A DNA stretch of 64,000 nucleotides from a virus (taxonomy: Duplodnaviria > Caudoviricetes): the IMG/VR virus record IMGVR_UViG_3300026159_000398. The stretch is one strand, 5' to 3'. The notes below the pieces were generated by a model. That model searched no databases and was not told the origin of the DNA. It was given only the letters and a program-made list of their open reading frames with translations. A program made the position numbers and the translations under genes. The stretch's first letter is position 1. Each line of letters begins with the position of its first letter. Below are positions 206 to 55,744 of this stretch, piece by piece.

Positions 206-505
206 TCATTTTCCTGATTTTTCATGTTCAATTTCTTTCTCCATTGCTTCAAGTTTGTCGTAATATGAGACTGGCCATGATTCTGCAATATGGTCAAGAG
301 CAATACGTTCTGAAATTTCTTTATTATTTGTGTGCTCAAATTCTACTTTTATACCTTTTTCCAATTCTTTAAGAAATTGTTCTTGTGGTTGAAAATCTTC
401 TTTTGATTTTCCGCTAGCAATAAATTTTCCTGCGGCAACGAAGTCTGCTTTGAAATCGACGTTTAATTCTTTTACGTCTTCAATGTATTCTCTAAATGTC
501 TTCAT
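206..505 (-). CDS. Tagged putative internal head protein with DUF5661-like domain
   Basis: Start reassigned to MKTFREYIED; C-terminal GIKVEFEHT...IALDHIAE...YYDKLEAME matches the DUF5661 pattern as recalled. Confidence 0.7.
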   Translation of the reverse strand: MKTFREYIEDVKELNVDFKADFVAAGKFIASGKSKEDFQPQEQFLKELEKGIKVEFEHTNNKEISERIALDHIAESWPVSYYDKLEAMEKEIEHEKSGK

Positions 506-680
506 TATATTCACCAGTTTCTGGGTTTTTTTGTATAGTTCTTTTAAATCCACATTGAGTACATTTAAATGTTGTTCCAAATGTGTTGTCCATCGTTTTT
601 TTATTTTTAGCACCACATTTTTGGCAAAATTCATTTGAAGATTTTTTTACATCTTCAAGATATTCTTTAAATGTCTTCAT
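492..680 (-). CDS. Tagged small zinc-ribbon protein
   Basis: Starts MKTFKEYLED (ATGA overlap with upstream stop); CQKC...CTQC. Confidence 0.75.
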   Translation of the reverse strand: MKTFKEYLEDVKKSSNEFCQKCGAKNKKTMDNTFGTTFKCTQCGFKRTIQKNPETGEYNEDI

Positions 681-997
681 TTCTTTGGTACCCATTTGGA
701 AAAATGTTCATCGCATTGTTCGCACATTTTTGTCAATGCATTTTCACGTAAACACGTTTTGCAACTCTTTTTAGCTGATTGTGGAATATTAACTTTGGCC
801 TCAAGATAATCCTTTTCCTCGTTTCTTTCTTGAAAAGCTTGTGTCATATAATGACCAAAATTATTTTCTTCTTGGATTGATTTATCCCATCCTTTTTCCC
901 AAATCCATTTCCATTTTTCAGGAGTATTGGCTTTTGTTTTATAAATGCCTCTTTTGGCATAAATCATCTTTTGTTGTTGTCTACTTTTTGGTGGCAT
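677..997 (-). CDS. Hypothetical protein with C-terminal CxxC pairs
   Basis: 106 aa ORF in the coupled array; CKTC, CEQC. Confidence 0.65.
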   Translation of the reverse strand: MPPKSRQQQKMIYAKRGIYKTKANTPEKWKWIWEKGWDKSIQEENNFGHYMTQAFQERNEEKDYLEAKVNIPQSAKKSCKTCLRENALTKMCEQCDEHFSKWVPKK

Positions 998-1009
998 AAT
1001 ATACTTCCG

Positions 1010-1246
1010 TTATTTTAAATAACCTTCAAATTTTCCTGGTTGTCTATGAATTTTATTAGCTTGATCAATTATAGCATCAAGATTATTTTTATTCTTTTTA
1101 ATCCACATTGGAAATGTCTCATCCAATTTTCCATGCGCCATCAAATAGTAATAAAGATTTCGAAGCAATTCATATTCTTCTGTGTCTTCTTGAGAAAGAT
1201 TTTCATCTTTATATGGGTCGCTTGTGTAACGTTCAGATATTTGCAT
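1010..1246 (-). CDS. Hypothetical protein
   Basis: 78 aa ORF, TAATG-coupled to the upstream gene. Confidence 0.65.
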   Translation of the reverse strand: MQISERYTSDPYKDENLSQEDTEEYELLRNLYYYLMAHGKLDETFPMWIKKNKNNLDAIIDQANKIHRQPGKFEGYLK

Positions 1247-2054
1247 TATTTTACTCTTTTAGTAAAGTGTTTTTGCATTCCTTCATGAATATAATCTGCT
1301 GCCCAACCAGCGACGTCTTCAATACCTTCAGATTTCAAAAATGCTTTTTCTTTCTTGGTATCTAGGTCAAAGTCGTGTCTTGACGCATACATGTCATACG
1401 CAACATCCCATGCAGCAGAACCAGCCCATTGGTTGAATTGGTCTTCCATATCTTCTTTGCTGAGTTTTTGTTGTTCAAGTTCGTATAATTGGTCACCAGC
1501 CATGTCAAAACCCATGCTTTCCATGGCTTTTTTGATTTTATCTATTGACATTCCTTTAAATTTTGCTTTGTCTTCTTTTTCTCTGCGTGCTTTGTCACGT
1601 TGCCAAGATCTTTCAAGTTTTTCATCATCTTCAACTTCTTTAAGACGTTTAGATATTTATTTGCAACACCTTCAGTTTTACGTTCTTCTTTGGCAAATTC
1701 TTCCTTATCTTTGGCTTTTTCTTTTGCTCGACGTTCAGGTTTTACAGTGGTCTTACTGAGGTATTTTTTCATCAATGGACTCCAACCTTCACGAGCATCC
1801 ATTGCTTCCCATGCTTCACAAGTACTGACAATGTCTTTAAGTTCTGCAAGAGAATCACCAGCAGAAATAAAAAGATCTTCAGTAACAGGATGGTAGACGT
1901 CATCGCGCGCCACGACAGCATCAAGATCTGCATCTTTGGCTATCTCATCAAGCCATTTGAGCATCTCATCTTTGCTTTCAAATGTCGGGACCTTTATGGT
2001 CTCATTAAGTCCAGAGCTTTTGGCTCGCTCAAAATATTCTTTAAACTTTCCCAT
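1246..2054 (-). CDS. Tagged hypothetical protein split by a -1 frameshift near 1657 (ORFs 1542-2054 and 1246-1551)
   Basis: Starts MGKFKEYFER; the -1 frame after AATAAA reads ISKRLKEVEDDEKLERSWQRDKARREKEDKAKFKG straight into MSIDK of ORF 1246-1551. Confidence 0.6.
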
Positions 2055-2293
2055 TAGTTAACCTCATATTCATGTACTAAACCGGCTATTTTGTTTGCTC
2101 TATATGATTTATATCGCTGATTATTAAATTTTTCATCAATGAGTGTTTCTGCATATTTTAAAGCAGCTTCTTTATTAAAGAAAATTTTATCTATAAAATC
2201 AGAAAGAAATGCATTATCTCTTTCAGCATATTGGTTTTCTACGATATAAATTTTATTTTTTGTTTCTTCTAAATATTCTTTAAATTGTCCCAT
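2054..2293 (-). CDS. Tagged small hypothetical protein
   Basis: Start reassigned to MGQFKEYLEE; TAATG overlaps at both ends. Confidence 0.75.
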   Translation of the reverse strand: MGQFKEYLEETKNKIYIVENQYAERDNAFLSDFIDKIFFNKEAALKYAETLIDEKFNNQRYKSYRANKIAGLVHEYEVN

Positions 2294-2652
2294 TAGGCTC
2301 TCTCCATTGTTCCTTGACGACCACATTCTGGGCACTCTACCCAATCCCAATCTTCTTCGTCTATTTCATCATCAGGAATATTATGTTCTTTTGGGTCAAG
2401 TTCATCAAAATGCCCACATTTACTGCATTTCAATGTTATTTTTTGTGATGCTTCTTCGGTAATTGGCTTCCAATTACCAAGTTTTCCTGGCTTGCATTTC
2501 TCGCATGTAGTTTCGTCTTGCTCATTTTTGTGTGTTGCAGTTTCGCCACAAAACATGCATTTACCTGATGACGCACGATTCGTCATGGTTTTTTCTATTG
2601 CATTATTTTTAGCTTGTCGTGACGCTTCTAAATATTCTTTAAATTTACTCAT
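2293..2652 (-). CDS. Tagged protein with two zinc ribbons
   Basis: MSKFKEYLEA start with AAGGAG RBS at 2652; four CxxC motifs; an in-frame upstream tag copy starts at 2730. Confidence 0.75.
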   Translation of the reverse strand: MSKFKEYLEASRQAKNNAIEKTMTNRASSGKCMFCGETATHKNEQDETTCEKCKPGKLGNWKPITEEASQKITLKCSKCGHFDELDPKEHNIPDDEIDEEDWDWVECPECGRQGTMERA

Positions 2653-2729
2653 ATAATTCTCCTTATTTTTTAAGCCATTCTTCGACTCGATCTTTGACAC
2701 AGACTCTAAATATTCTTTAAATTTACTCA

Positions 2730-3287
2730 TTATTTTTTACCTCTATAAATTCCAGGTATTTCACGTTTCATCATGCCCATACCTTCTTTAATTGACTCAA
2801 TTACTTTATCTGCCCCAGGCTGACCAGCTCCAACAAATATTCCGTCAGGAGTATAATCACGAACTTCGTTTACGCCTTTAATTTTTTTTTGCGTAGCGTA
2901 AGAACCATCAGGATTTTTCATAGTCATTTGTGGGCCGCCTGATGCATGTTCATACTCAAACTTGCCGCCTTTCTTGCGTTTAAGTTTTCGAATTGTACCA
3001 ACATGATTAGGTGCTACAAAATTCGCAGTTGAAATTGTAGAACCACCAGCTGGAGCAGCTTCTTCAACATATTCACCCTTTTGAATTTTATCAAGGCGAT
3101 GTTGCACCGAACGAAGTTCTTGATTATAAAGAGCTTCATCACCACGATGAAATGGATTTCCTTCCCAAATGATTTCAGATTCTTTTTCATCAACAATAGC
3201 CAATTGAATATGATGTTGATCATATTCAAATGTTTTTATTGTTAATTTGTTTTGTGCAATTTCAAGATATTCTTTGAATCTGCTCAT
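2730..3287 (-). CDS. Tagged hypothetical protein
   Basis: MSRFKEYLEI start, 185 aa. Confidence 0.75.
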   Translation of the reverse strand: MSRFKEYLEIAQNKLTIKTFEYDQHHIQLAIVDEKESEIIWEGNPFHRGDEALYNQELRSVQHRLDKIQKGEYVEEAAPAGGSTISTANFVAPNHVGTIRKLKRKKGGKFEYEHASGGPQMTMKNPDGSYATQKKIKGVNEVRDYTPDGIFVGAGQPGADKVIESIKEGMGMMKREIPGIYRGKK

Positions 3288-3288
3288 T

Positions 3289-3504
3289 TTATTGTTCCTT
3301 TATTTCATATGAATCATCGTTTCTCATAGACTGATATTCATATTCATGATCAATCCATTTCTCTGCTTCGTTTTCTGTGTCAAAAGAAATAACAGGAATA
3401 GTGTATACATCATCATAATCTTTTACTTTTCTGACAACTAGAAACTTTTTATCTAGATTATTTTCATTTTTGACACTTTCCATATATTCTTTAAATCTAC
3501 TCAT
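3289..3504 (-). CDS. Tagged small hypothetical protein
   Basis: MSRFKEYMES start, ATGA overlap. Confidence 0.75.
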   Translation of the reverse strand: MSRFKEYMESVKNENNLDKKFLVVRKVKDYDDVYTIPVISFDTENEAEKWIDHEYEYQSMRNDDSYEIKEQ

Positions 3505-3737
3505 TTTTGTTTTCCTTCATGTGTATCGTGCGAATAATTTTTCCAAGCGGGGCATTCTTTACCGTCTTTTGTGCAATACATTTTATTATTCTTTTTGGAA
3601 TGCTTGCAGATGTTCCAGTAAATGTCAGCTTCGTCATCTTTGTTTTTGGCTATTTTGGCACCTTTATCACATTTAGAATAATCAGGCTGAAATTTTGAAA
3701 GTTGAACTGTTTCTAAATATTGATTGAACTTATTCAT
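3501..3737 (-). CDS. Tagged small Cys-containing protein
   Basis: Start reassigned to MNKFNQYLET. Confidence 0.75.
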   Translation of the reverse strand: MNKFNQYLETVQLSKFQPDYSKCDKGAKIAKNKDDEADIYWNICKHSKKNNKMYCTKDGKECPAWKNYSHDTHEGKQK

Positions 3738-3924
3738 GAGCTGCATACTCCATTATTTCATTTGCTGCCTGCTCAATTTTAGCAAGTACTTGAATTCCAG
3801 GAAAGCTTAAATCTTCATTATCACGAAGTGTATTACAATAACGTTGAATGAGGTCTGCAGCTTTGGCAATACTATTAGCCTGCATCTCATCCATTTTTTC
3901 GAAATATTCTTTAAATTTACTCAT
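3730..3924 (-). CDS. Tagged small hypothetical protein
   Basis: MSKFKEYFEK start, TAATG overlap. Confidence 0.75.
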   Translation of the reverse strand: MSKFKEYFEKMDEMQANSIAKAADLIQRYCNTLRDNEDLSFPGIQVLAKIEQAANEIMEYAAHE

Positions 3925-4166
3925 TACTTAATTCCTTTTGATTTTAACCAACGCTTTATGCCATGAGGATATCCATCATTGATTTCGGCGTTTGATTTAC
4001 ACATTGAATGATTGATTTTATTAAACCACTTTTTGCGACTTTCTTCTGACATATCTTTGTACTGAGGAAGCTCACTAAAAAGTTTGAACATTTTTTCCGC
4101 AGACATTCTATTAGCACCGGGTATTCGTTGCTTTGCTGCTTCAAGATATTGGTTAAATTTACTCAT
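3924..4166 (-). CDS. Tagged small hypothetical protein
   Basis: MSKFNQYLEA start. Confidence 0.75.
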   Translation of the reverse strand: MSKFNQYLEAAKQRIPGANRMSAEKMFKLFSELPQYKDMSEESRKKWFNKINHSMCKSNAEINDGYPHGIKRWLKSKGIK

Positions 4167-4168
4167 TG

Positions 4169-4930
4169 TTATTCATCCTCTAATTCGTTGATTTCCATAT
4201 GCAAAAAATTTCTCCAGTAAAAACCAAAGATATCCTTGAGAATTGGATCAATTTTATAACTTAATTCTTCATCTGTTTTTGGGATTGTAAAGTGGAAAAG
4301 AAATTCGTCACCTTCTTTTAATAAAATAACATCAACATTGAATTTCTTAATCATGGCGGCTTTAATTTTGTTTGCGTCGGTTCTAGTCATCTTTTTATTG
4401 CCGGCCCACAATTTTTTCTGACGAATCAACATTTCATAATATTGAGATGGGACTTCAGATTTTTTACCACCCATGTATTTGTCACCACGCATCTGACGTC
4501 CTTCATAACCAGCTTGGTCATGGCGTCCAGTCAATAATTCTTCCATCGCATAGTCAGGTTCCATAGTAAGCCATTCAGCAGCTTCATCAGCATCTTGGAA
4601 CATGTAGTAAGCCATGATATCGAGAAGTTTTCCACGAACTTTGCCACCATCTGAAGTTTCCCAAACTGTGAGGGTTTTATTTGGGTAATATGCGTAACCA
4701 CCGCCACTGAGACCTGCGCCTTTCTTCAATTCAGGAGTAAGTGCAAGAATAACATCATAAAGATCATCAACTGAAAATCCTTCAACAGCGCGTGACATCA
4801 TAATTTCTTTGATGACTCGTGGAGAACCGTAAGCACGCAATTGTTCAATGGCGTCTTTTATTACTTCGGCGTCGTATTCTTGTGGTTGACGCTTTTTAAG
4901 TGCCTCAAGATATGTATGTAATCTTCCCAT
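4169..4930 (-). CDS. Tagged hypothetical protein (~253 aa)
   Basis: Start reassigned to MGRLHTYLEA, 1 nt after the upstream stop. Confidence 0.75.
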   Translation of the reverse strand: MGRLHTYLEALKKRQPQEYDAEVIKDAIEQLRAYGSPRVIKEIMMSRAVEGFSVDDLYDVILALTPELKKGAGLSGGGYAYYPNKTLTVWETSDGGKVRGKLLDIMAYYMFQDADEAAEWLTMEPDYAMEELLTGRHDQAGYEGRQMRGDKYMGGKKSEVPSQYYEMLIRQKKLWAGNKKMTRTDANKIKAAMIKKFNVDVILLKEGDEFLFHFTIPKTDEELSYKIDPILKDIFGFYWRNFLHMEINELEDE

Positions 4931-4931
4931 G

Positions 4932-5144
4932 TTATTTTCCCATTTCACGAACTAATGTGGATATGCGAATCATATCCATTGTTTCAATACCATGTTTCTT
5001 TTGGAATTCTTTAATGACCACGGAAGGCGGTACATCAGCTTTGTCAATTTCTTTATTGAGTTGCTTTGCTAATTTCTTATGTTCTTCTGGAGTCAATCTA
5101 TGCTTTCCAGTTGCCATTCCCATATAATCACTGAATTTGCTCAT
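4932..5144 (-). CDS. Small protein with a degenerate tag
   Basis: MSKFSDYMGM start (lacks the Glu). Confidence 0.65.
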   Translation of the reverse strand: MSKFSDYMGMATGKHRLTPEEHKKLAKQLNKEIDKADVPPSVVIKEFQKKHGIETMDMIRISTLVREMGK

Positions 5145-5835
5145 TTGTTTTTTCCTCATTTAAAAATATATTACTCTTTTCGAACAAAGCAACCTTGTTA
5201 TTTCTGACGAAGTCTTTAAATTCTTCAACGTACCATGTATCACTGAAGCCAATAGACTGAAGTCTTTCTGGCGGGGTGTACTTGACTTTTACCATGGCCA
5301 ATGAATTCAATCCAGGAAAAACTTTCTCGAAATAAGTTTTGTTGTATACAATCCAGTTGCCTTGGTCTGTAATTTTCATGAACAAGAAACTGAGAGGCTC
5401 ACGCATTGGACGAGGATATTTTTCTTTGAAACAAAGGTAGGTCTCTGTGTCATAGCATATTTCATAGAGCCAACGTTCCAATTTTGCAGGTAGTTGTCCT
5501 TTTTCTAATTTCTTAAACGGAAAACCTGCATAATTCTTTGATTCAATGATGTAGCGGAATTTCAATTCGTATGGTGGGTAAATGTCTCCAATCATGCTCT
5601 CGAGTTGTTGTTCATTATACTTGTAGACTCGATCACGATTGGTCATACCAGTTCTGGCACCACTGTTGGGTATTCTTATAAATGAAAGTCCTGATTCTTC
5701 AGTCAAGAAATTCGCACAAAAACGCTCGCCATTTTTTCCTTTACGAATTGCAGAGCGAGCAACATCGCTTCTAGATTTTCCAGACTTTGTAGTCTTTGGC
5801 GCAAGCTTTTCAAATTTCTCGACATTCAAATTCAT
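5128..5835 (-). CDS. PD-(D/E)xK nuclease, Holliday-junction-resolvase-like
   Basis: KGKNGER...RIPNSGA...GDIY...IESKNY, the layout typical of phage Hjc-like resolvases. Confidence 0.7.
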   Translation of the reverse strand: MNLNVEKFEKLAPKTTKSGKSRSDVARSAIRKGKNGERFCANFLTEESGLSFIRIPNSGARTGMTNRDRVYKYNEQQLESMIGDIYPPYELKFRYIIESKNYAGFPFKKLEKGQLPAKLERWLYEICYDTETYLCFKEKYPRPMREPLSFLFMKITDQGNWIVYNKTYFEKVFPGLNSLAMVKVKYTPPERLQSIGFSDTWYVEEFKDFVRNNKVALFEKSNIFLNEEKTNEQIQ

Positions 5836-6056
5836 ACTTTATCCTCTCTCACATTTGGGTCCTTTAGTTGTGGAAACACTCTTGGAGCGTCCATCAACGA
5901 AAGACAATCTTCTGCTTCTTTAATGATTTGTTCTAAATAATAAATAATATCATTACGCTTCATTTTTTCGCCGTCGCGAATGATAATTTCTGCTGATTTA
6001 ATTAAAATTGAAATTCTAGATAAAACTGCCTTCGGTATAGATTGTAGTGCTCTCAT
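5832..6056 (-). CDS. Hypothetical protein
   Basis: 74 aa ORF, ATGA-coupled. Confidence 0.6.
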   Translation of the reverse strand: MRALQSIPKAVLSRISILIKSAEIIIRDGEKMKRNDIIYYLEQIIKEAEDCLSLMDAPRVFPQLKDPNVREDKV

Positions 6057-6313
6057 AGTATTGCTATTGCCTCATTCTCTTTCTGAAACATTGCAAATTT
6101 TCGTGAATCCATCATATCACGAATCCAATCATTCATTCTATTAACAATATCTTCGCGAACCAATAATTCTTGTCTTTTATCAAGAGGTATAAGTCTAAAT
6201 TTATTTATTTCAGTTATGATTTCGGTTGGAGTATCACCTTGAATAAATAAATTCTCATACTCATAATCAATCACGACCTCCATTGATTCAGTTTGAGTTG
6301 TAAAAACTAGCAT
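6053..6313 (-). CDS. Hypothetical protein
   Basis: 86 aa ORF with GGAG RBS. Confidence 0.6.
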   Translation of the reverse strand: MLVFTTQTESMEVVIDYEYENLFIQGDTPTEIITEINKFRLIPLDKRQELLVREDIVNRMNDWIRDMMDSRKFAMFQKENEAIAIL

Positions 6314-6321
6314 GGGGTCTC

Positions 6322-7095
6322 CTACGAAAGTTTATCTTTTGCTTTCTCCGTGATATTTTCAAGCTTATGAACAAATGATTTTGGATTTACGAATGTCTTT
6401 TTGATAATTTCATTTTTAATTTGTTCTTTGACTTCCATAATTTCATTCTTTTCAAGCTCACCACTGAGTTTGAAGCGAATCTGTCTTGGCTGCCAAAGTG
6501 AAGTAACAATTTTGACTGCGGCACGGTCAGTATCAGGAGATTTATCTGCATTGACTGTGTTTAAAATTTTACGGCCAGAAACCGGATTAGAAAGTTCCAA
6601 AACAAAAATAATAGAACCATCTTCTTGACCTTCTTCAAAATAGCCACGAAGCAAATAAAAATTTGCACTATGACCTTTAAAATCAAATTGTTTAAAGTAT
6701 GGATTTTGAATGGTATTATTGATGAGCCACTTTTTTGATTTGGTAAAGTTGCCATCAATCCATTTGTTCCACGGCTTAAATGGGTGATTTAATTTAACAG
6801 AAAAGAATTTAGTTCCAGCTTGATTGCGAAGGTCAAAAAAACCTGTCAGAATTTTTGGTGGCAGGTTTGTATTGGTTAATTCTTCACCATCAACCATGAA
6901 ATATTTTTCAAGAATATTTTCGAATGCGGTCCCAAGTTCTTTGGTGTCTTTTCCTGCTTTCAATTTCATGTAGAGTGAATGATAAATAACCGTATTGGCG
7001 TGCATTTTTTCTTGCTTTGAAAGTGATCGTAAAGACATGGCACCGCCAGATACACCCATTCTGGCGTCTTCAATGTATGTTAAATATTCTTTCAT
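6322..7095 (-). CDS. Tagged protein, possible restriction-endonuclease-like fold
   Basis: MKEYLTYIED start; LGTAFE...FFDL...FFSVK spacing. Confidence 0.55.
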   Translation of the reverse strand: MKEYLTYIEDARMGVSGGAMSLRSLSKQEKMHANTVIYHSLYMKLKAGKDTKELGTAFENILEKYFMVDGEELTNTNLPPKILTGFFDLRNQAGTKFFSVKLNHPFKPWNKWIDGNFTKSKKWLINNTIQNPYFKQFDFKGHSANFYLLRGYFEEGQEDGSIIFVLELSNPVSGRKILNTVNADKSPDTDRAAVKIVTSLWQPRQIRFKLSGELEKNEIMEVKEQIKNEIIKKTFVNPKSFVHKLENITEKAKDKLS

Positions 7096-7349
7096 CTTTC
7101 CATCTCTTGATCAATAAGTTGTTGACGATATGCACGATGACGCTTTTTAATGGCATCACGTTTTGCAAAATGTTCCTTTTCTGCTTCTTTGGGATCTTTT
7201 TGAATTGTTTGTGATGAACCAAACCCAGTACAAGTTGGACATTGATAACGTGTACTATAAATATTATCATGTTCTATTTTCATATCTTGACCACATTTGG
7301 CACATTGTTTTGATTTTACAACTTCAAGATATTGTTCAAATTTATTCAT
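7092..7349 (-). CDS. Tagged small zinc-ribbon protein
   Basis: MNKFEQYLEV; CAKC...CPTC...TIQKDP, paralogous to 492-680. Confidence 0.75.
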   Translation of the reverse strand: MNKFEQYLEVVKSKQCAKCGQDMKIEHDNIYSTRYQCPTCTGFGSSQTIQKDPKEAEKEHFAKRDAIKKRHRAYRQQLIDQEMER

Positions 7350-7687
7350 GACATATTGTCCATTAGGATGATGGTTTTGCCTTGATCTTTTGCTTGTTGA
7401 ATAGCTTCGGTCATTGAGAAACTTTCATTTGGTTTTCCATAATACATTGCGTCTTTATTGTCATGAAGCCAACGTTGCATCAAGAGACTTTTGCGAGTGT
7501 ATTCATCAGAACCAATTTTAGTAGCTGATTTTACAGCAATGTCCACGTCTTTGACGTACTTTGTAGTCTCAATAAACTTATTGAAGTCCCACATGCCAAC
7601 AATTTTGATGCCATCACGCACAGTGTATGGAGGAAAATCAGGCTTCTTGGCTTTTGCAGCCTCAAAATAGTCATTAAAACGTGACAT
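7346..7687 (-). CDS. Tagged hypothetical protein
   Basis: MSRFNDYFEA start. Confidence 0.75.
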   Translation of the reverse strand: MSRFNDYFEAAKAKKPDFPPYTVRDGIKIVGMWDFNKFIETTKYVKDVDIAVKSATKIGSDEYTRKSLLMQRWLHDNKDAMYYGKPNESFSMTEAIQQAKDQGKTIILMDNMS

Positions 7688-7845
7688 TATTTTTTTTCCT
7701 TATTTTCTTTGTTTTCACGAACGAGTTTGGACAGACTTGATTCTTCAACGAAAACTTTGTCACTCATACCAACGAGAACTTCGTTAGTCTTTTTGTCAAG
7801 GTCTTCTTTTTTATGTCCAAAGTATCTTACAGCATTCCACAACAT
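7687..7845 (-). CDS. Small hypothetical protein (52 aa, below the ORF-track cutoff)
   Basis: AAGGAG RBS, MLWNAVRYFGHKKEDL..., TAATG overlap with the next gene. Confidence 0.6.
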   Translation of the reverse strand: MLWNAVRYFGHKKEDLDKKTNEVLVGMSDKVFVEESSLSKLVRENKENKEKK

Positions 7846-7857
7846 AGTCTTTACTCC

Positions 7858-8709
7858 TTAGATAATATCGTCTTCTTTTGCTGCCTTGACGAGGTCTTGC
7901 ATGCTTTTGAATATATTTAATTGTTTAGTTAATAGTTCTTGCTTTTTTTTCTTCTGCGCGCGATCGTATGCAATGATTCCAGCAAACGTGAGAGGCACCC
8001 AGTTCTTTTTGGCTTTGGCTTTTAGCAATCCACCAAAATCATTTATAACCACTTTAATGGTTCTGTCACCTGCCCAGGTAATTTCTTTTTTAAGTGACGT
8101 GACATTCTCAATACCAATTGCATTGCTCAATTGCTTTGAAAGTGCAGAACCTCTGCCCATCATTTCAGAAATAGTTTTTAAGACTTCCTTCTGAATATCA
8201 AATGAACGTTCATATATGAGAATGTATGGCAACGGTTTTTCAAAATAAATCTCTGCTGTTTCTCTAGTAATATTATTTCCTGAATGCTTGACATGAATGT
8301 AACCATTGCTGACATAACGATCAAGAATACTTTTCATTCTGAATCCAACTTCAGCATCAATCAAAAGGAATGGCAATTTATCAGATGACATTTTGCAGCG
8401 CACATCTATTATTTTCCATGAATACAAATCGTATGGAACTTCGAACCACCCTTTGGTATGAAAAATATTGAGGATGTCTTTTTTATCAGAATCAGTCAAA
8501 TTCGATTTGATGTAGGCTTTCATTTTCTGAAGCTGATAAAGTTGGTTGATGTTGAGTTCAGTGTACCACAAAAGTTCATTGAATTCTTTCACACAATGTT
8601 GTTCGATCTTTTTTGAGGTCGTCTGAACTTCCAAAAAAACGGGGTAGGTCACTATCCCGTTCTCAATTCGCTTCGTGGCCGATTTGATGTTGTATTGGTT
8701 TAGCTTCAC
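7858..8709 (-). CDS. Hypothetical protein (283 aa)
   Basis: Long ORF; GTG start overlaps the upstream stop. Confidence 0.7.
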   Translation of the reverse strand: MKLNQYNIKSATKRIENGIVTYPVFLEVQTTSKKIEQHCVKEFNELLWYTELNINQLYQLQKMKAYIKSNLTDSDKKDILNIFHTKGWFEVPYDLYSWKIIDVRCKMSSDKLPFLLIDAEVGFRMKSILDRYVSNGYIHVKHSGNNITRETAEIYFEKPLPYILIYERSFDIQKEVLKTISEMMGRGSALSKQLSNAIGIENVTSLKKEITWAGDRTIKVVINDFGGLLKAKAKKNWVPLTFAGIIAYDRAQKKKKQELLTKQLNIFKSMQDLVKAAKEDDII

Positions 8710-9206
8710 AGCTCAAAGACCTCATAAACTCCTTGTGAATCATGAAGGACGTTGAAGTTCGTGCAGTAATGAACATCAATGTCCCAATCCTCAGTTACTT
8801 CGTCAATCCATTTACAAAAATGGCCATCCACGTCATAATTGTTAAAATTAAAACAATAGTGACATGTATGAGGAAGAGAACCGCTATTAAGCACATAAAG
8901 AACAAGCTCTTTGAGAGCTGCCACAATTTTTGCATATTGAGCATCCCTGATTATATCATCTGCAGTTGTTAATGAAGTTATATTTAAGGTGCCATTTCCG
9001 AGGGTCATGGCGTTTGTAATGACGTTGGTTATACTTGAGGTTGAAGCTCCGACGGTGATCACGAGACCATTGGAAGCTGTGTATGTGGTGCCGCCTGAGA
9101 TGTGAGTGAGCATGTCAGCCCAGAAAGGAGCATCGAACTCGAGCAATTGGAAGACAAGACCCTTAACAAAACGGGTAATTTTGAATTTCAAGTGTACAGT
9201 TAACAT
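8706..9206 (-). CDS. Hypothetical protein with Thr/Ser-rich middle and Cys/His-rich C-terminus
   Basis: GAGG RBS; CHYC...HFC...HYC. Confidence 0.7.
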   Translation of the reverse strand: MLTVHLKFKITRFVKGLVFQLLEFDAPFWADMLTHISGGTTYTASNGLVITVGASTSSITNVITNAMTLGNGTLNITSLTTADDIIRDAQYAKIVAALKELVLYVLNSGSLPHTCHYCFNFNNYDVDGHFCKWIDEVTEDWDIDVHYCTNFNVLHDSQGVYEVFEL

Positions 9207-9250
9207 AGTTGCCTCTTTAAATATATTACACGAATATTAAAAAGAAGGCA

Positions 9251-9808
9251 TTAAATAACCATTATGCCATTCAAAATCAATCCTTCCTCAGGATTGCTGG
9301 CGATAATATAACGCGAAAGATTCTTTAATTCGTTTTGATAAATAAGATTATTGTGTGCTGTGGTCGCGTCAAGTGGAGCATCAGGCGCCTCAACGATCGT
9401 CATGAGCATGCTCGTGTACGCGACAGTTGAATAATAATACCCTTCTGTTTTATTGTCAAAACAAAGAATTTCGGTTTCTTCTGGAATGATGTCAAAGAAG
9501 TCAATTGGTTGAACTTCATCTGTATCTTCGTCGGGTGAGATGAATCTGACTGGCTCCTCATCGAAGCTTTGATAGACTAGAGAAAGGCCATCTTCGGTGG
9601 TAATTATTTTGATGTCTTTTTCCTGAAGGATATGCATCTTGTCCTTCGGAATCATTCGAATACTCAAAGCATCAGTATAAAAATTTACTGCTGAAAAATT
9701 GAGATTGAATTTAGTTACACGGTTTCCTTTGCGACTTGTATTTAAAAAAGAAAACACTTCATAATTGTCGTCGGTTATTTTGACGCTGTCTTTAGTCCTG
9801 ATAAACAT
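9251..9808 (-). CDS. Hypothetical protein, possibly a degenerate Hint fold
   Basis: GAGG RBS; ends ...GLILNGIMVI. Confidence 0.6.
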   Translation of the reverse strand: MFIRTKDSVKITDDNYEVFSFLNTSRKGNRVTKFNLNFSAVNFYTDALSIRMIPKDKMHILQEKDIKIITTEDGLSLVYQSFDEEPVRFISPDEDTDEVQPIDFFDIIPEETEILCFDNKTEGYYYSTVAYTSMLMTIVEAPDAPLDATTAHNNLIYQNELKNLSRYIIASNPEEGLILNGIMVI

Positions 9809-9821
9809 GATATCCTCGAGC

Positions 9822-10187
9822 TCATAATATAGAATCCTCTTTCATCAATTGTTGTAGTTGTTTTGTGAGCTCTGTGTTTATCTGTAATTCTCTTTTTGTT
9901 TGTCGTAATTCTCCTGCTTCAAATAAATCGTTTTTGAAGTCAGGGTCCAGCTTAAAAAAGAATTTATTAAAGGCTTTTGAATTAGCCAAATATTCTTTCG
10001 GTGCTATATATAAAGAAGCGTATGTTTCGCTGACAATTCCATTCCAACCGAAAAAAAGATAATTTTCAAAGGTTGGTTTGATATTTTTTTCTTGGCAGAA
10101 CCGCTTCATCTGACGGTCAAACTTCTGGATTTTCAAAATCCTTAGTTTATTACTCCAACCAAATGTAGGCGCAACGCTTGCATTCAT
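9822..10187 (-). CDS. Hypothetical protein
   Basis: 121 aa ORF; start uncertain. Confidence 0.55.
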   Translation of the reverse strand: MNASVAPTFGWSNKLRILKIQKFDRQMKRFCQEKNIKPTFENYLFFGWNGIVSETYASLYIAPKEYLANSKAFNKFFFKLDPDFKNDLFEAGELRQTKRELQINTELTKQLQQLMKEDSIL

Positions 10188-10398
10188 AGTTAATTATATA
10201 TAACTGCTGCTTTTATGTTTAGGAAAAAGCCGCCCTCTTAAGTATTTAGTATAATGGGCAACTCACCTTTACAGAGTTATTATAGTTTATTTTTGTTGGT
10301 TTCATTTAGGAAAAGTGCGAATTTTTTCTCACTTTTTTTCTAAATAAAATGGCTATGAAAATTATACAATTCTCTATATAAAGAAAGGAGTAAGAACT

Positions 10399-40154: not shown

Positions 40155-40166
40155 GATAGTCTCCTA

Positions 40167-48513: not shown

Positions 48514-48928
48514 GATTGGTCCTCAGTGTCCCAAAGTCTTCTGTCCAATATGGGCACTTGAAGTGGCTATGCTTTCCATTGGCCACACCACGCATCAAAC
48601 AGATAGACTTTTGATTTATAGTTTTCTCGTAACAACACACTCGACACTTCTTTTCACCAAGAATAGGTGAATATTGTATTTTGATCTGTTTGGTTTGTGG
48701 CACGTTAATATTTTTAAAGTCGTAAACATAAACTGTATTATCTTTGTTATGAATTATACGTCGCAGTGGCAGAATATCTGCCAGCGAGTTTTTATTTCGA
48801 TAGTACCAAAGAGCAAAATAAATCGCTCGATGTTTGTCTACTATCAAAGAGTTCTTTGGAAAGGTCGTAAAGATCTCCCAAAGTTCGTTGCCATGTTTTA
48901 TTCTATTGATGTTCAGTGTTATTATCAT
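48374..48928 (-). CDS. Hypothetical Cys-containing protein
   Basis: CRVC...C...CPYW; its tail overlaps the sigma gene by 140 nt. Confidence 0.55.
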   Translation of the reverse strand: MIITLNINRIKHGNELWEIFTTFPKNSLIVDKHRAIYFALWYYRNKNSLADILPLRRIIHNKDNTVYVYDFKNINVPQTKQIKIQYSPILGEKKCRVCCYEKTINQKSICLMRGVANGKHSHFKCPYWTEDFGTLRTNHALHNTRRSGENESSDRRVFGNIREHDREHKTYRTNHDSVVRAILR

Positions 48929-49836
48929 ATCATTGGTGTGAATTCCATTCTATCGATGACATTCTTCATAATTTTTGAATATTTGATTGGCATTTTTTCC
49001 ATGTACTCATTGAAGTTCAATAACTTATAACGAGCCATGTGCAATGCGTCATCCATCACATTCTCTTGGAACATTGTCATTTTCTTCATATCTGAAGAAG
49101 TGATAATTGAATTCATGATATTGTCGTAAAGAACTGTTGATTGCGGTTTGTTGCAATGTTGACAATAATAATGAACTCGACTATCGATACCAAATTGTCC
49201 GTCAAACGTTCTTGCGACCGAATAAGCCTCAAGAATTTCACTGTAGTGCATATTAAATAGAAGCACATCCAAGTAATGTTCAGGTGGAATCACAGTGTCC
49301 ATAAATTTCAGTTCTGATAATTGTGTAGAAATAAACAACGCCAACAAAAACCAGTCCTGCTCACCGTGTTCCGAATTCAAAAGAAGATTGCCAAAGAAGA
49401 TGTTGTCTTCCACCAATCTGATTCTGAACGTAAGTTCCATATTACGAGACGAATACGAGACTGTAGGCGATAATCGGCTCTGGAACTTATTCATGATATT
49501 GACATTGAACTTGTCGACATCCATGTAAATTTGATTTTCTTTTTTACAGTCTGAACACACTCCATTCAGATACACTCCTGTTCCTTCTTCTAATTCATTG
49601 ACATATAAATACATCCACAAATAAAAAAAATCTTGTGTTGCCATTTTCATAATGTGGACGTCTGAATCTGTGTATCGTCTTAAAACAGCGAGCTGATAAT
49701 CGAACACAGAGTCAAATAAATTATTGTCACTTTGGAATAACAAGAAGTCGTTCGTAATTTGTCGAACGAGAACAAACGGCGAATATAATAATCCGCCGCT
49801 TGGTAAAAATATAAGCTTTTCGAAAGAATTCTTCAT
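48925..49836 (-). CDS. Baseplate hub assembly protein (gp26-like paralog)
   Basis: LPSGG..Y, D..YL, CSDC, CQHC. Confidence 0.6.
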   Translation of the reverse strand: MKNSFEKLIFLPSGGLLYSPFVLVRQITNDFLLFQSDNNLFDSVFDYQLAVLRRYTDSDVHIMKMATQDFFYLWMYLYVNELEEGTGVYLNGVCSDCKKENQIYMDVDKFNVNIMNKFQSRLSPTVSYSSRNMELTFRIRLVEDNIFFGNLLLNSEHGEQDWFLLALFISTQLSELKFMDTVIPPEHYLDVLLFNMHYSEILEAYSVARTFDGQFGIDSRVHYYCQHCNKPQSTVLYDNIMNSIITSSDMKKMTMFQENVMDDALHMARYKLLNFNEYMEKMPIKYSKIMKNVIDRMEFTPMI

Positions 49837-50802: not shown

Positions 50803-50950
50803 TTATTTTACTCCTATTGGATTCTCATAGAATTATATTCCAGAACTCGAAAAAAAATTAAAAAAAGTCACCAATTTTGGAATATAATTTAATAGGGCAA
50901 TCCCACCATAAAAGTTGGAACACCTGGTCAATCTCACTTAATATAATTTC

Positions 50951-51562
50951 ATGAAACAATTAGATCATTATCTTTTAGCGGTTCTTGAAGCAAAGCAAAT
51001 GAGCTCATTGAATGCTTTAATAGCTAAGATTAACTCTGGAAAGCCTGTGTATATTTTACTATCTGGTGGATTTGGCGCAGGCAAATCTCATGTAATCGAG
51101 AAAGTCCTTGGTATTCCTAAAACTGACATCGTAGATATCGATGAGATTAAAGTGTCACAGAATCTTAGTGTGCCAAAAGCAATCAATGAAATGAGAAAAA
51201 TTCTGCAAGAGCGCATGACAAAGAAGCAAAACATCATTCAACAAGGAACCAGCGCCAATCTGCAATTAACTAAAAATAAAATTATCCTTGCCAAAAAAGC
51301 TGGTTATGTGACTATTTTGTTTCGAATCGAACGTGATGTTGATGAGCAAGTTACCTCTTTATTTAAAAGAGGTGAAGAGACTGGTCGTGGTTATGAAAAG
51401 GACGATCCTTCGAAGCCAATGGAAGAGCGCATTAAAGCAGCAAAAAGTACTGTTGAATTTAAAAATCAAAAATCTCTTGAGGTTTTTGAAGCATTGAAAG
51501 ATTTGCCAGAATTGGATTATGTTCTCACATATAATACGACCACTGGTAAGGTAAGTGTATGA
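50951..51562 (+). CDS. P-loop kinase (zeta-toxin/PNK-like)
   Basis: LSGGFGAGKS, VDIDEI, IIQQGT, GY..., R..RG. Confidence 0.75.
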   Translation: MKQLDHYLLAVLEAKQMSSLNALIAKINSGKPVYILLSGGFGAGKSHVIEKVLGIPKTDIVDIDEIKVSQNLSVPKAINEMRKILQERMTKKQNIIQQGTSANLQLTKNKIILAKKAGYVTILFRIERDVDEQVTSLFKRGEETGRGYEKDDPSKPMEERIKAAKSTVEFKNQKSLEVFEALKDLPELDYVLTYNTTTGKVSV

Positions 51563-52188
51563 GTCAACCATCTAATTTTTTAGGTAAAAAACATTCTGAA
51601 GAATCAAAAAAGAAATTGAGTGATTCACATCTAGGAAAGATTCCATGGAATAAAGATAAAAAGTGGTCAGAAAATACAAAAAATAAAATAAGTAAAGCTT
51701 GTGAAGGCCGCATACCATGGAACAAAGGATTAAAAGGAGTACAAAAACATTCTAAGGCCACTAAATTAAAAATGAGTAAAATACATACTGGCCAAAAGCA
51801 CACAATCCAATCAAAACAAAAAATAAGTGAATCTTGGACTCCACGAATGATAGGAAGAGGCATAAAAGGACATCATAATGGAATTTATTATGATTCATCT
51901 TATGAGCTTCATTTCATGCAATTACTTGATGAATATAAAATTCCTTATGAAAGAGCAGATAATAAGAAATTTAGAGTGAAATATACTTTTGAAAACCAAG
52001 AAAGATTTTATTATCCTGATTTTTATTTACCAAGAGAAGGAAGTATTGTTGAAATTAAATCTTCATTTGGTTTAAATAATTTAGTAGTCCAATTAAAATT
52101 AGAAGCAGCTCAAAAACAGTACGGAACAAAGTTTATTGTTATAACAGAACAAGAAATTCCAGAATTAAAAAATAATCATTATGTTTAA
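51559..52188 (+). CDS. Homing endonuclease: NUMOD3 repeats plus TnsA-like PD-(D/E)xK domain
   Basis: KKHSEESKKK, IPWNK repeats; DSSYE...YYPDF...VEIK. Confidence 0.85.
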   Translation: MSQPSNFLGKKHSEESKKKLSDSHLGKIPWNKDKKWSENTKNKISKACEGRIPWNKGLKGVQKHSKATKLKMSKIHTGQKHTIQSKQKISESWTPRMIGRGIKGHHNGIYYDSSYELHFMQLLDEYKIPYERADNKKFRVKYTFENQERFYYPDFYLPREGSIVEIKSSFGLNNLVVQLKLEAAQKQYGTKFIVITEQEIPELKNNHYV

Positions 52189-53812
52189 ATTATATTGTGA
52201 AGCCATATCCAGTTCCAACGTGAACGTATTTGTGGTATTCCCGGGTAGATTTCAACCATTTACCAAAGGGCATTTTGATGGTGTTAAAACCGCTCTAGAT
52301 ATTGCTGGACCATATTTGAACAAACTGATTGTTTTGACGAGTGATATTCGAGGCGAAAAAAGCTTTCTGTCATTTGAAGAAAGAAAGTATTTAATAGAAG
52401 AAGGTGTAAATCACGATGCTAGAGTAGTTGTACGTCAGTTAAAAGAAGGAACTCCGTACAACTACAAAAGCATTCTGAATAGCATTCCTGAAATTGATTC
52501 ATCCAAACACCATTTAATTCTTTTAGTCACATCTGCAGATGACGCCAATAGAATTAAGAATGCGTTTCCAATTAACTCTCTTGAAGACATTGAGAACCTT
52601 GCAGGAAAAGCAGGATTCGAAAGACGCGTCAAAATGGTCAAGGATAAAATTGGTGATAAATTCAATCCAAAGACATTTGTCTTTTCAGCCATGGGCAAAA
52701 TTGTAATGCCTCGCATGAAAGAAGGCGGCCAAAAGATTTCTGGAACAAGAGCACGCGAAGCAATCAAAAACAATGATTGGAAAACCGTGCAGCAATTAGT
52801 TCCATACACCATAAACGAACACATAAAGACTATTTTAAAGAAACTAATTTCCATGGAAAATGCCGTAACACCACCTGAAATGAAAGCAGATAAAGGTCTC
52901 CATTTGGAACACCTTGAAAAAGCAATTACTCGACCATCACGTAAAGAAGCTGCTCTTGATATTCTGCAGAAACTCATAAATGCCAATAAGAATCTTGTTG
53001 TAACTCAAAAGATCGATGGCCGCCCAGTAATCATATTTGGTCGTGACATGGACAATAAATTCTTTATTGGCATGAAAGATGAAGTTCTCAAAGGACGATT
53101 CATGAAGTCGTACGACGACATTGAAAGCTTTCATTCATTTGACGAAAAGAAAGCTGGTGACAAAGCAGAAATGGTCAAAGGAAAACTTGGTGGCAAAATC
53201 AAAATGTTCACCACTTTATTTCAGACTCTTTCAGGCATGAAGATTCCTGCTGGAGTCGCGTACGCAGCTGATGTTTTGTTTTACCCAGGTTTTGGCAATA
53301 AATCAATGAAGAATAATATGTACGCCGTAAAGCCTAATACGACGTGGTACATTGCAACTAATAAAGACATTTCAGAAAGAATCAAAGCTGCAGAAATTGG
53401 GCTCGCTGTTCATACTCGTTTCAAAATGGATGGTGGAGTTTCTAATCCTGTGGCAGTCACGACCGCAACAAGCGGACTTCAACAGATTCCTCAAGTATTT
53501 ATTCCACGAACACAATTCAATCTTGAACCGTTGCGTGGTGTAGAATCAGACCTGGCTAAGTTCAAAAGAACTGGTGATGTTGAAGCAATAAAGAAAATAA
53601 GAAATAAACTTCTTGATAAATATCAACAATTGGATTTACGAGCAGAAGTAACCACAAGTGATACAAGTGATGAAGTTTCTTCAGACAAAGGTGAAGGACT
53701 TGTCGTGCACGATTCAACCAACGGCAACACATTCAAAATTGTAGATCTTGAGGGATTCACCAAACATGCTCGTGAAATTCATGCAACAAGAAAACAAAAT
53801 ATGTGGAGTTAA
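52181..53812 (+). CDS. Fusion of an HxGH (cytidylyltransferase-like) nucleotidyltransferase and an ATP-dependent ligase-like domain
   Basis: FPGRFQPFTKGH and ISGTRAR at the N-terminus; HLEH, TQKIDG, EGLVV, FKIV at the C-terminus. Confidence 0.75.
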   Translation: MFKLYCEAISSSNVNVFVVFPGRFQPFTKGHFDGVKTALDIAGPYLNKLIVLTSDIRGEKSFLSFEERKYLIEEGVNHDARVVVRQLKEGTPYNYKSILNSIPEIDSSKHHLILLVTSADDANRIKNAFPINSLEDIENLAGKAGFERRVKMVKDKIGDKFNPKTFVFSAMGKIVMPRMKEGGQKISGTRAREAIKNNDWKTVQQLVPYTINEHIKTILKKLISMENAVTPPEMKADKGLHLEHLEKAITRPSRKEAALDILQKLINANKNLVVTQKIDGRPVIIFGRDMDNKFFIGMKDEVLKGRFMKSYDDIESFHSFDEKKAGDKAEMVKGKLGGKIKMFTTLFQTLSGMKIPAGVAYAADVLFYPGFGNKSMKNNMYAVKPNTTWYIATNKDISERIKAAEIGLAVHTRFKMDGGVSNPVAVTTATSGLQQIPQVFIPRTQFNLEPLRGVESDLAKFKRTGDVEAIKKIRNKLLDKYQQLDLRAEVTTSDTSDEVSSDKGEGLVVHDSTNGNTFKIVDLEGFTKHAREIHATRKQNMWS

Positions 53813-53814
53813 AA

Positions 53815-54492
53815 ATGCCACCTAGAGGTTTTAAATGTTCTAAAGAAACTAAAGAAAAAATGAGTAAAAGTAAAAAAGGAAAAGTTTCTAATCGTAAAGG
53901 ACAAAAAGATTCTGAAATTACTCGATTAAATAAAAGTAATGCACATTTAGGAAAACAATGTTCTGAAGAAGCTAAATTAAAATTGCATAATATTCATGTT
54001 GGTAAAGTATTATCAGAAGAAACAAAACAAAAGATGCGCAAGCCAAAATCGGATATTCATAAACAAAAAATAAGTCAATCATTAAAAGGAAAAAAATTCT
54101 CAGAACAACGCAAAAATAGATTAAAAGAAAATTGGTCTCCAAACCCAAAAAGAAATTATGGTAAAGGAGGTATTTATAATGGAATTCCATTTGATTCTTC
54201 TTACGAACTCAAATTCATGCAACTTCTTGACGAATACAAAATTCCTTATGAAAGAGCAGACAATAAGAATTTCAGAGTAAAATATATTTTTGAAAATCAA
54301 GAACATTATTATTATCCTGATTTTTATTTGCCTAGAGAAGGAAGTGTTGTGGAAATTAAACCATTTTATAAATTAACTGAAATTGGTACATTAACTAAAT
54401 TAAATGCAGCTAAAGAAGTATATGGCAATAATTTTATTATTATTACTGAAAAAGAACTGCCAGAACTTATGAAAGGAAAAAACAATGTTTAA
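53815..54492 (+). CDS. Homing endonuclease, paralog of 51559
   Basis: SKETKEKMS/SEETKQKM repeats; DSSYE...YYPDF...VEIK. Confidence 0.85.
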   Translation: MPPRGFKCSKETKEKMSKSKKGKVSNRKGQKDSEITRLNKSNAHLGKQCSEEAKLKLHNIHVGKVLSEETKQKMRKPKSDIHKQKISQSLKGKKFSEQRKNRLKENWSPNPKRNYGKGGIYNGIPFDSSYELKFMQLLDEYKIPYERADNKNFRVKYIFENQEHYYYPDFYLPREGSVVEIKPFYKLTEIGTLTKLNAAKEVYGNNFIIITEKELPELMKGKNNV

Positions 54493-55744
54493 TCAATATC
54501 TTGAAAATATACTTTCCAATGCGTTTCTCGAAGGTGGCAACGTTGCCGTTCGCAGCGGAGATAAATGGATTGGCGCGCAAAAGATTGACGTCAAAACTTA
54601 TGGTCGTGAAGCTTCAAGAGACGCTATCAAAGAAGTTCTGCACGCTCTTAATAAGAAACTACAACTGTGGAATGCTAAAGACATCGACAATGGTTTGATG
54701 CTTGCTGGTTCTGGCAAAGCATTATTCAATACCTCTATTAGTGATGAAGAGTTTCTTACTCATAAACCTCTTGTTGGTGATGTTGACGTCCAGATTCCCC
54801 TTGAAGCCAAACCTGCACTTGAAAAGATCTTAAAGCCGGGCGCCAGATTCGGCAAAGCAATTTATATTGGTGCTGGCGAAAAAGCTCAAGGTGGCGATCA
54901 AGAAGGTGCTCAAATAAATACGCTCTTTAAACTGCCTCTCGGTGATGGCGTAAATGCGCAATTTGACTTCGAATTCGTTGGATATGAAAAGAAAACGAAG
55001 CTGCCATCTGAATGGAGCCAATTTTCACACGGTTCATCATGGCGTGACACTTCTGTACAAATTAAAGGTGTACTGCATAAATACTTGCTTCGTGCTGTGG
55101 CTGCTGGTAAAATCAAAATAGCAAAAGTCACGACTCCTGCTGGAACCAAAATCAAAGAAGAACCAATAAAAGAACTTGCATTCTCTGTCGCTAAAGGTCT
55201 TCGCGTAAAAATGGTGCCTCTGGCAGATTATCTCGCTAACAAGCGAGTTCCTGATGAAAACAAAATCAAGCTTCTCAAGAATCTTGAAAAAGTAACTGGT
55301 AAAACTTCATTGCAACTCAAACGTGAAAAAGATATCATGATTGAAATGCCAACCGCAAGTTCAGAATACGTTACTGATGTTCAGCAAATCATGACTGATA
55401 TTGGATTGAAGTATAATAAAGCAGATGTGGATTCATTTGTTGGTGTGATTCAGATGCTCAAGGAAATGCCTGCAGCAAACATCACGAATATCTTCAATAA
55501 TTTTGTTGATTTATTATTTGAGCAGGAAATAGAAAACCCTGCAAATTATGCAGGGTCTGAAAAAGAAAAGATTCGTAAAGCTGCTGAAGTTGATGTCGCT
55601 GTGAAAAAAGCAGGAATAGACTACTTCATGCAAGAATTCCCTGCTTTGAAAGGACTTTCTCAATCGGTAAATCAACGACTCGTCGATTGGCAAAAAAATT
55701 ATGGCAAGCGTTATCAAGCTCGAAAAGAGGTTGGTACGGAATAG
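54485..55744 (+). CDS. Tagged Pol-beta-superfamily nucleotidyltransferase-like protein
   Basis: MFNQYLEN start; LAGSG...GDVDVQ...AQFDFE. Confidence 0.7.
   Translation: MFNQYLENILSNAFLEGGNVAVRSGDKWIGAQKIDVKTYGREASRDAIKEVLHALNKKLQLWNAKDIDNGLMLAGSGKALFNTSISDEEFLTHKPLVGDVDVQIPLEAKPALEKILKPGARFGKAIYIGAGEKAQGGDQEGAQINTLFKLPLGDGVNAQFDFEFVGYEKKTKLPSEWSQFSHGSSWRDTSVQIKGVLHKYLLRAVAAGKIKIAKVTTPAGTKIKEEPIKELAFSVAKGLRVKMVPLADYLANKRVPDENKIKLLKNLEKVTGKTSLQLKREKDIMIEMPTASSEYVTDVQQIMTDIGLKYNKADVDSFVGVIQMLKEMPAANITNIFNNFVDLLFEQEIENPANYAGSEKEKIRKAAEVDVAVKKAGIDYFMQEFPALKGLSQSVNQRLVDWQKNYGKRYQARKEVGTE

Follow-up and report, generated by a model that had tools for sequence, protein, structure and literature searches.

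We analysed a 64-kb stretch of DNA (hereafter the window) that represents the reverse strand of positions 31408-95407 in the 205,232-bp IMG/VR virus record IMGVR_UViG_3300026159_000398 (G000). The window carries 24 minus-strand open reading frames (ORFs) of 62 to 386 amino acids whose products begin with the same short peptide, M-x-x-[FLY]-x-x-Y-[LIFM]-E or a shortened form of it (MKEYLE, MREYLE, MVKTYLE, MNLKEYLE, MGFGKYLE or MIFKKYIE), here called the tag. A sequence-only reading of the window had taken this start for a T4-like capsid-targeting peptide shared by about 30 otherwise unrelated genes, and the 27 N-termini on which it relied were all found in the sequence where it had placed them. 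Every tag begins at the start methionine of its gene and has a ribosome-binding site upstream. With five others found immediately outside the window, past its start, the 205-kb genome has 29 tagged genes; all of them share the strand of the head genes and fall in the interval from 52.5 to 100 kb of the genome.

The tagged genes and their common start

The main array of tagged genes occupies 206-7687 on the minus strand. For comparison we used L058, a 93-kb contig of an about 90%-identical strain from a biogas fermenter (the sister strain, with about 19 tags in 17 kb), and G001, a 191-kb IMG/VR contig. The array begins with 206-505 (MKTFREYIE, 99 amino acids, DUF5661 body) and 492-680 (MKTFKEYLE, 62 amino acids, zinc-ribbon-like body), followed by 1542-2054 (MGKFKEYFE, 170 amino acids), whose orthologue in the sister strain is tagged too. 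The next two genes, 2054-2293 (MGQFKEYLE, 79 amino acids) and 2293-2730 (145 amino acids), are missing in the sister strain; the second carries MSKFKEYLE twice in frame, at residues 1 and 27, with 27-nucleotide codings that differ by 1 base. The gene at 2730-3287 (MSRFKEYLE, 185 amino acids) has tagged relatives in the sister strain (MSRFKEYME) and in G001 (MNKFHSYLE). After it come 3289-3504 (MSRFKEYME, 71 amino acids), 3501-3737 (MNKFNQYLE, 78 amino acids), 3730-3924 (MSKFKEYFE, 64 amino acids), with a body that is replaced in the sister strain, 3924-4166 (MSKFNQYLE, 80 amino acids) and 4169-4930 (MGRLHTYLE, 253 amino acids), with a sister-strain orthologue that is 81% identical. A degenerate tag, MSKFSDYMG, in which Gly stands for the Glu, opens the 70-residue product of 4932-5144, and it is likewise degenerate in the sister strain. 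The remaining members are 6322-7095 (MKEYLTYIE, 257 amino acids), 7092-7349 (MNKFEQYLE, 85 amino acids, zinc-ribbon-like) and 7346-7687 (MSRFNDYFE, 113 amino acids), the last having a near-identical body with the tag MKNFQDYLE in the sister strain. A PDDEXK_15 nuclease-like gene at 5128-5835 (minus strand) and three small untagged genes split the array, and this block is kept in the sister strain.

Nine further tagged genes, also on the minus strand, belong to the head gene run. Four of them open it: 42377-42850 (MREYLE, 157 amino acids), the first gene of the head operon and divergent from the portal gene, 41958-42383 (MVKTYLE, 141 amino acids), 41438-41965 (MNKFQSYLE, 175 amino acids) and 40717-41124 (MIFKKYIE, 135 amino acids). 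Five lie between the protease and scaffold genes, namely 35607-35825 (MKAFNDYLE, 72 amino acids), 35353-35607 (MNLKEYLE, 84 amino acids), 34856-35353 (MGFGKYLE, 165 amino acids), 34481-34843 (MRTFKQYLE, 120 amino acids) and 34179-34481 (MKDFNFYLE, 100 amino acids, rich in CxxC). The short form MKEYLE starts a 386-residue protein encoded at 23947-25107 (minus strand) within a neck and tail gene run; this protein was considered as a paralogue of the capsid protein, and no relation was detectable. The sequence-only reading had also counted two plus-strand genes, 52181-53812 (a cytidylyltransferase and DUF6267 fusion starting MFKLYCE) and 54485-55744 (419 amino acids, MFNQYLE, phrog_19290, function not assigned). 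Both starts are present, but they match the pattern less well and their membership is doubtful.

The consensus start in this lineage is M-[SKGN]-[KRT]-F-x-x-Y-[LIFM]-E. Among the nine-residue tags Y7 occurs in 22 of 22 and E9 is invariant, F4 occurs in 18 of 22 (82%; otherwise L or Y) and L8 in 68%, while the six shortened tags lack position 4. The tags of G001 and L058 show the same pattern at positions 4 and 7. The concentration of the motif at N-termini, on which the sequence-only reading depended, is pronounced: genes called roughly over the full 205-kb genome have Y[LIFM]E starting among their first 10 residues in 24 cases, where the internal rate predicts 2.4 (Poisson P = 2.6e-16). The strict DNA pattern ATG-N6-TTY-N6-TWY-NTN-GAR has 19 matches on one strand and 0 on the other, and a reversed-pattern control gave 0 matches. 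The SbcCD-like, sheath, portal, terminase and homing-endonuclease proteins bear no tag; the sequence-only reading had said this of replication, tail and homing-endonuclease proteins. A baseplate-hub-like protein (48925-49836, minus strand) contains a tag-like N-F-N-E-Y-M-E about 25 residues from its C-terminus.

A shared start of this kind could be mainly a nucleic-acid feature, either a translation-start enhancer or a homology that enables swapping, with a functionless peptide. Neighbouring tags can indeed be near-identical in DNA (26 of 27 bases between 2730 and 2652), BLASTN finds short cross-matches between the tag codings of different genes, strain differences break at tags, and the tag codons are A/T-rich. 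Yet the same residue is encoded by different and even non-adjacent codon families inside the tags (Ser by AGY, both AGT and AGC, and by TCA; Arg by AGA and CGT; Leu by TTA and by CTY, both CTT and CTC), with a usage close to the genome average. Positions 2, 3, 5 and 6 vary freely whereas 4, 7 and 9 are held, and the tag peptide is conserved across phages whose proteases are just 25-69% identical. In one orthologue pair of G000 and L058 (7346-7687), 6 of the first 14 residues differ while M1, F4, Y7 and E9 are kept in front of an almost identical body. The varied codons and this pair show that selection on the tag acts at the protein level, on the peptide and not on the DNA, and a nucleic-acid feature as the main cause is thus very unlikely.

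We also considered that the peptide might be a recognition leader for a modifying enzyme, notably the radical-SAM/SPASM and YcaO operon of G000, as one radical-SAM gene is present in each of G000 and G001. This is the least probable of the alternatives. At 145.4 kb on the genome, the radical-SAM gene is 45 kb away from the closest tagged gene; an 81%-complete marine record (G002) with six strict-pattern matches and at least three typical tags has no radical-SAM match; and the tag lacks the Cys, Ser or Thr pattern typical of radical-SAM substrates.

In agreement with the sequence-only reading, the bodies that follow the Glu are unrelated in all-against-all BLASTP and phmmer comparisons, with the exception of one paralogous pair (40717-41124 with 41958-42383) and a zinc-ribbon trio. 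Pfam and PHROGs searches with 25 in-window tagged genes returned hardly anything beyond DUF5661 and weak zinc-ribbon matches, and ESM Atlas look-ups of the 386- and 253-residue cargoes gave low-confidence models and no usable neighbour. Membrane-like segments were found in 0 of the 29 tagged proteins versus 31 of 236 (13%) other proteins. The tagged genes might still be paralogues of a single ancient family that retained the start while the bodies diverged until no likeness was left. The two small paralogue groups of G000 fit this idea, and so does G001, where ten array genes (L154 2055-10682) have an extended leader in common, MKTF-x-x-YLEAVH-x-x-P, that reaches about residue 17, and their bodies have a faint common pattern that hints at a diverged paralogue family over fully unrelated cargo. 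However, a hidden Markov model (HMM) of this G001 family matched none of the G000 cargoes, tagged proteins range from 61 to 507 amino acids, and the tag is attached to Pfam families as varied as DUF5661, NUDIX, DUF6267, cytidylyltransferase-like proteins and zinc ribbons. An old family would still need a reason why just the first 9-12 residues were kept, and we judge common descent highly improbable.

Head genes and the T4 capsid targeting sequence

Pfam matches (PF03420, 7e-14; PF07068, 2e-54; PF07230, 1e-53) indicate that the window encodes a gp21-type protease and a T4-type head. The gp20-type portal gene lies at 42940-44982 (plus strand) and the Gp23-family major capsid gene at 30982-32601 (minus strand); a large terminase, a sheath-like protein, baseplate-hub-like proteins and SbcCD-like nucleases are encoded as well. 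Among the phages listed in a collection of 50,697 records, none has a major capsid protein closer to this one than 23-27% identity, and a megablast of two parts of the window against the same records gave zero matches and hence no near relative in culture. These comparisons place the phage, which is uncultured, far from T4 within the T4 superfamily. DNA nearly identical to it is present in metagenomes of biogas fermenters and anaerobic digesters.

The sequence-only reading had named 36394-37068 (minus strand) as the protease, and this identification holds: the product is a gp21-type S77 prohead serine protease (Peptidase_S77, PF03420), 33% identical to T4 gp21, with aligned His and Ser motifs that are invariant across six homologues. 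It is the candidate tag-removing enzyme. Sites resembling those of T4 head maturation occur in several neighbouring products (a slash marks the presumed cut). In the capsid protein, L-I-A-E/D at about residues 56-60 aligns with the known maturation site of T4 gp23, L-T-E/A. A protein that is scaffold-like by position and composition (32631-33554, minus strand) contains K-K-Y-M-E/G at residues 37-42, and its G001 homologue has T-K-Y-L-E/E at the corresponding place. Two small minus-strand genes directly upstream of the protease gene occupy the positions of T4 gp68 (37068-37406) and gp67 (37546-37674) and have internal A-F-L-E/A and K-Y-L-E/A, respectively, both at about residue 24; the N-terminal 27 residues of the second are paralogous to those of the first. 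The frame of 37546-37674 stops after 42 codons past an A7 run and another frame runs for about 50 codons to 37420, so that the break in 37420-37674 may be either a homopolymer sequencing error or a frameshift.

In T4, the capsid targeting sequences (CTS) of the internal proteins IPI, IPII and IPIII are removed by the gp21 prohead protease, as the work of Mullaney and Black (1996) is summarized in reviews (PMC9026906, PMC3012670). Targeting to the capsid depends on CTS residues 4 and 7, and gp21 processing on residues 8 and 10 (PMC9026906). The leader of IPII and IPIII is MKTYQEFIAE. Both the T4 CTS and the tag are leaders of about ten residues that begin at Met1 of otherwise unrelated proteins, with aromatics at 4 and 7, followed by an aliphatic residue at 8 and a closing Glu. 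The two phages also have in common an S77 protease of the gp21 type, a gp20-type portal, and a gp23-type capsid protein whose maturation sites align. The proposal that the tag is T4-like is supported by its layout at positions 4, 7, 8 and the Glu; the details of the site differ. The aromatics are swapped (F4/Y7 here, Y4/F7 in T4) and the Glu comes one residue earlier, so that the spacing is shorter by one residue and the site reads Y-L-E, with Tyr at P3 and the aliphatic Leu at P2 instead of at P3. T4 moreover has 3 tagged genes where this genome has 29. When a complex of the protease and residues 1-45 of a tagged protein was predicted, the score was 0.00 against a mark of 0.32, a result that speaks neither for nor against binding.

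Exchange of tagged genes and distribution of the tag

Alignment of the L058 contig to window positions 1-10500 (BLASTN) showed that the array flanks of the two strains are collinear at 86-89% identity. Inside the array, L058 has cleanly lost 2052-2727, which joins the start codons of two genes, and 3288-3896 is replaced by 195 bases, the breaks being the first base after a tag Glu codon and a start codon. L058 also contains an insert of about 4 kb that holds five additional tagged genes along with two endonuclease genes. The two endonuclease genes flank a gene for a 326-residue NUDIX protein (L058 9763-10743, start MKAYLE) that lies in this 4-kb insert absent from G000. The array differences between the strains are whole-gene insertions, deletions or swaps with breaks at a start codon or directly after a tag. 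In its behaviour the array therefore resembles the variable ip loci of T-even phages, the tag coding being where units are joined.

Tags are reused in more distant relatives. G001, with a protease 69% identical to that of G000, has 11 strict tags, mostly MKTF-x-x-YLE, together with looser ones beside the protease, and its tagged bodies generally do not match those of G000. Exact MKTFKEY[LF]E starts were found on 35 IMG/VR contigs, in clusters of 2-4; completeness is rated at 2-31% for nearly all of these contigs, from which genome sizes of about 170-200 kb follow, and an S77 protease is present on four of the five largest and on 2 of the remainder. A looser IMG/VR scan with MKTF-x-x-Y-L-E returned 113 stretches, mostly single genes belonging to a few recurring small families, whereas a scan for MSKFKEYLE returned no contig. 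Strict tags number 19 in G000 versus 3-6 in each of the marine-type records that have the exact MKTFKEY[LF]E start, and there are 0 with this spacing in T4, HTVC008M and P-HM2; the scale in G000 and its two close relatives is therefore unusual.

Several observations weigh against a T4-type targeting role. First, Y-L-E differs from the L/I-x-E sites of T4 and from the phage's own capsid site, I-A-E. Second, weaker conservation continues beyond the Glu ([VA] at position 11, K or H at 12), which a pure cut-off leader does not predict. Third, the cargoes have the same isoelectric points as other small proteins and are not basic like the T4 internal proteins. Fourth, the main array lies about 25 kb from the head genes, beside the SbcCD-like genes. 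Fifth, an uncultured marine T4-like group carries the full tag on DUF6267 proteins and on cytidylyltransferase/NMNAT-like ones, two families that are untagged in cultured phages. Sixth, a single MKTFxxYLE start, one per genome, occurs in small phages without an S77 protease (four of six near-complete records, 35-68 kb). The DUF6267 and cytidylyltransferase genes are separate but clustered in Pelagibacter phage HTVC008M and separate and adjacent in Prochlorococcus phage P-HM2.

These data bear on a further alternative, in which the peptide is a general N-terminal module that does some other work at the protein level and does not bring its carrier into the head. It might be a helix on which a chaperone or host factor docks, it might signal degradation or stability, or it might be a propeptide that holds toxic proteins inactive until it is cut. 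Such a module would accommodate the single tagged genes of complete S77-less records of 35-41 and 68 kb, the conservation past the Glu, the marine carriers, which are enzyme families that work untagged in cultured relatives, and the distance of the main array from the head genes. On the other hand, multi-copy arrays were found only where the record has T4-type head genes or is a fragment of a genome of such size, the conserved positions are those that matter in the T4 tag, [YF]-[LM]-E recurs in the scaffold-like and core-position proteins, and nine tagged genes lie within the head operon. We consider a general module unlikely, though more probable than the other alternatives. Since single MKTFxxYLE starts occur in small S77-less phages, the bare peptide is not diagnostic and is unusable alone as a marker; the telling signal is the multi-copy array in a T4-type genome.

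The reading that we favour, with reasonable though not strong confidence, is that the tag arrays represent an expanded T4-type system of capsid targeting and processing. The sequence-only reading is in this respect partly upheld: the S77 protease, the matching tag positions, the scaffold and core sites, the tagged genes of the head operon and the reuse of the tag in relatives agree with it, while the aliphatic residue at P2 and the occurrence of the peptide in S77-less phages do not. The tag would be this lineage's version of the T4 CTS, its F4/Y7 pair corresponding to Y4/F7 of IPIII, and a newly made tagged protein would bind through it to the scaffolding core of the assembling prohead. Once the shell has closed, the invariant Glu would mark the cutting site for the S77 protease (36394-37068), which would process the capsid, scaffold and core proteins as well, and the freed bodies would remain in the head with the DNA and could exit alongside it at infection. 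If the tag alone is the address, any gene that acquires it would become cargo. The tag coding doubles as the break and join point for whole-gene swaps, and these have yielded fast-changing arrays with some 30 cargo genes. The phage thus probably packs, perhaps even injects, about ten times more protein kinds than T4. An anti-defence role for the cargo is plausible, though only by analogy with known systems. The complete proposal, that one portable T4-type tag flanking swap-prone units loads about 30 proteins per head for delivery with the DNA, the NUDIX protein of the sister strain included, is put forward tentatively, as something short of an even chance.

Related systems and neighbouring features

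The sequence-only reading set the present array against the three internal protein genes of T4. That number is right for T4 itself, but the T-even phages together have at least 10 Ip families that share only the leader (PMC12373910); the principle is therefore known, and only the scale is new here. Ip1-3 each inhibit distinct GmrSD type IV restriction enzymes (PMC12373910, PMC9391042). The T-even ip loci and the arrays described here are alike as fast-changing sets of genes that share only the leader and replace one another from strain to strain. They differ in that the T-even diversity is spread over many phages with few genes each, whereas about 30 tagged genes stand in one genome here, and in that Ip1-3 target GmrSD while nothing ties the present cargo to restriction enzymes.

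Two other systems invite comparison. In the phiKZ-like giant phages 201phi2-1, phiKZ and SPN3US, a diverged gp21-like protease processes head proteins after Glu (PMC9026906, PMC5694885, PMC7411985). Many head proteins are cut in this way there (19 in 201phi2-1) and some are ejected into the cell, and this resembles the cleavage predicted here. However, the phiKZ-like propeptides are longer and dissimilar, with a minimal x-x-E motif instead of a portable nine-residue start, and the genes are not in swap-prone arrays. Phage P1 packages its Dar anti-restriction proteins in the head (PMC9024508, PMC12810830). These are capsid-loaded proteins delivered with the DNA to protect it, a likeness to the loading predicted for the tagged proteins, but P1 loads them by ordered protein-protein contacts (Hdf, DarA and others), uses no common short cleavable tag and has an unrelated head type. 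What sets the present case apart from these systems is the F-x-x-Y-L-E consensus, the remoteness of the lineage from T4, a count of tagged genes per genome that is higher by roughly ten-fold, and the breakpoints at tag borders, and no description of such a tag-gene expansion was found in the literature searched.

Internal proteins are the first phage proteins to act in the infected cell. If the tag works like that of T4, about 30 candidate delivered proteins of this phage, and more in its relatives, could be listed from sequence alone. Such a list would lead directly to new functions in counter-defence or takeover among uncultured digester and marine phages. Many new families for host takeover or anti-defence in the first minutes of infection would then be indicated, and T4-type heads would hold a far more varied protein load than the model phage suggests. 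Swapping at tag borders would explain how the cargo set renews itself, and the tag might serve to load foreign proteins into the heads of phages that do not infect E. coli.

A AATATAAT-like box lies upstream of the sheath, portal, terminase and baseplate-hub genes and of the first gene of the main-array run. In the form AATATAAT / TATATAAT it recurs before structural and endonuclease genes (e.g. 10199, 21677, 39003, 42881, 45256 and 50839) and is probably a promoter element of the phage's own; ATATAATT was counted in 23 of 116 upstream regions genome-wide. A scan of the array for sigma-70 promoters and terminators gave the same result as shuffled sequences, with no terminators or extra promoters inside the array. 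RNA runs contained small shares of phage sequence as contigs and were uninformative on expression.

At least nine homing-endonuclease genes of the GIY-YIG/NUMOD3 type were identified in the window (11601-12134, 17869-18453, 25636-26202, 28896-29570, 30386-30925, 35825-36394, 51559-52188, 53815-54492 and 58853-59515), several of them wedged among head and neck genes. The one at 35825-36394 sits between the protease and tagged genes, and the one at 30386-30925, on the plus strand, just after the capsid gene, where it separates that gene from a downstream Peptidase_C39-like gene (29577-30221, minus strand). An HNH-like, Cys-rich gene occupies 33621-34178. Minus-strand genes for two membrane-spanning proteins and for one protein with a signal-peptide-like start lie amid the head operon (39585-40658 and 41121-41441), and both membrane proteins have homologues in the related contig L001 (7268-8457).

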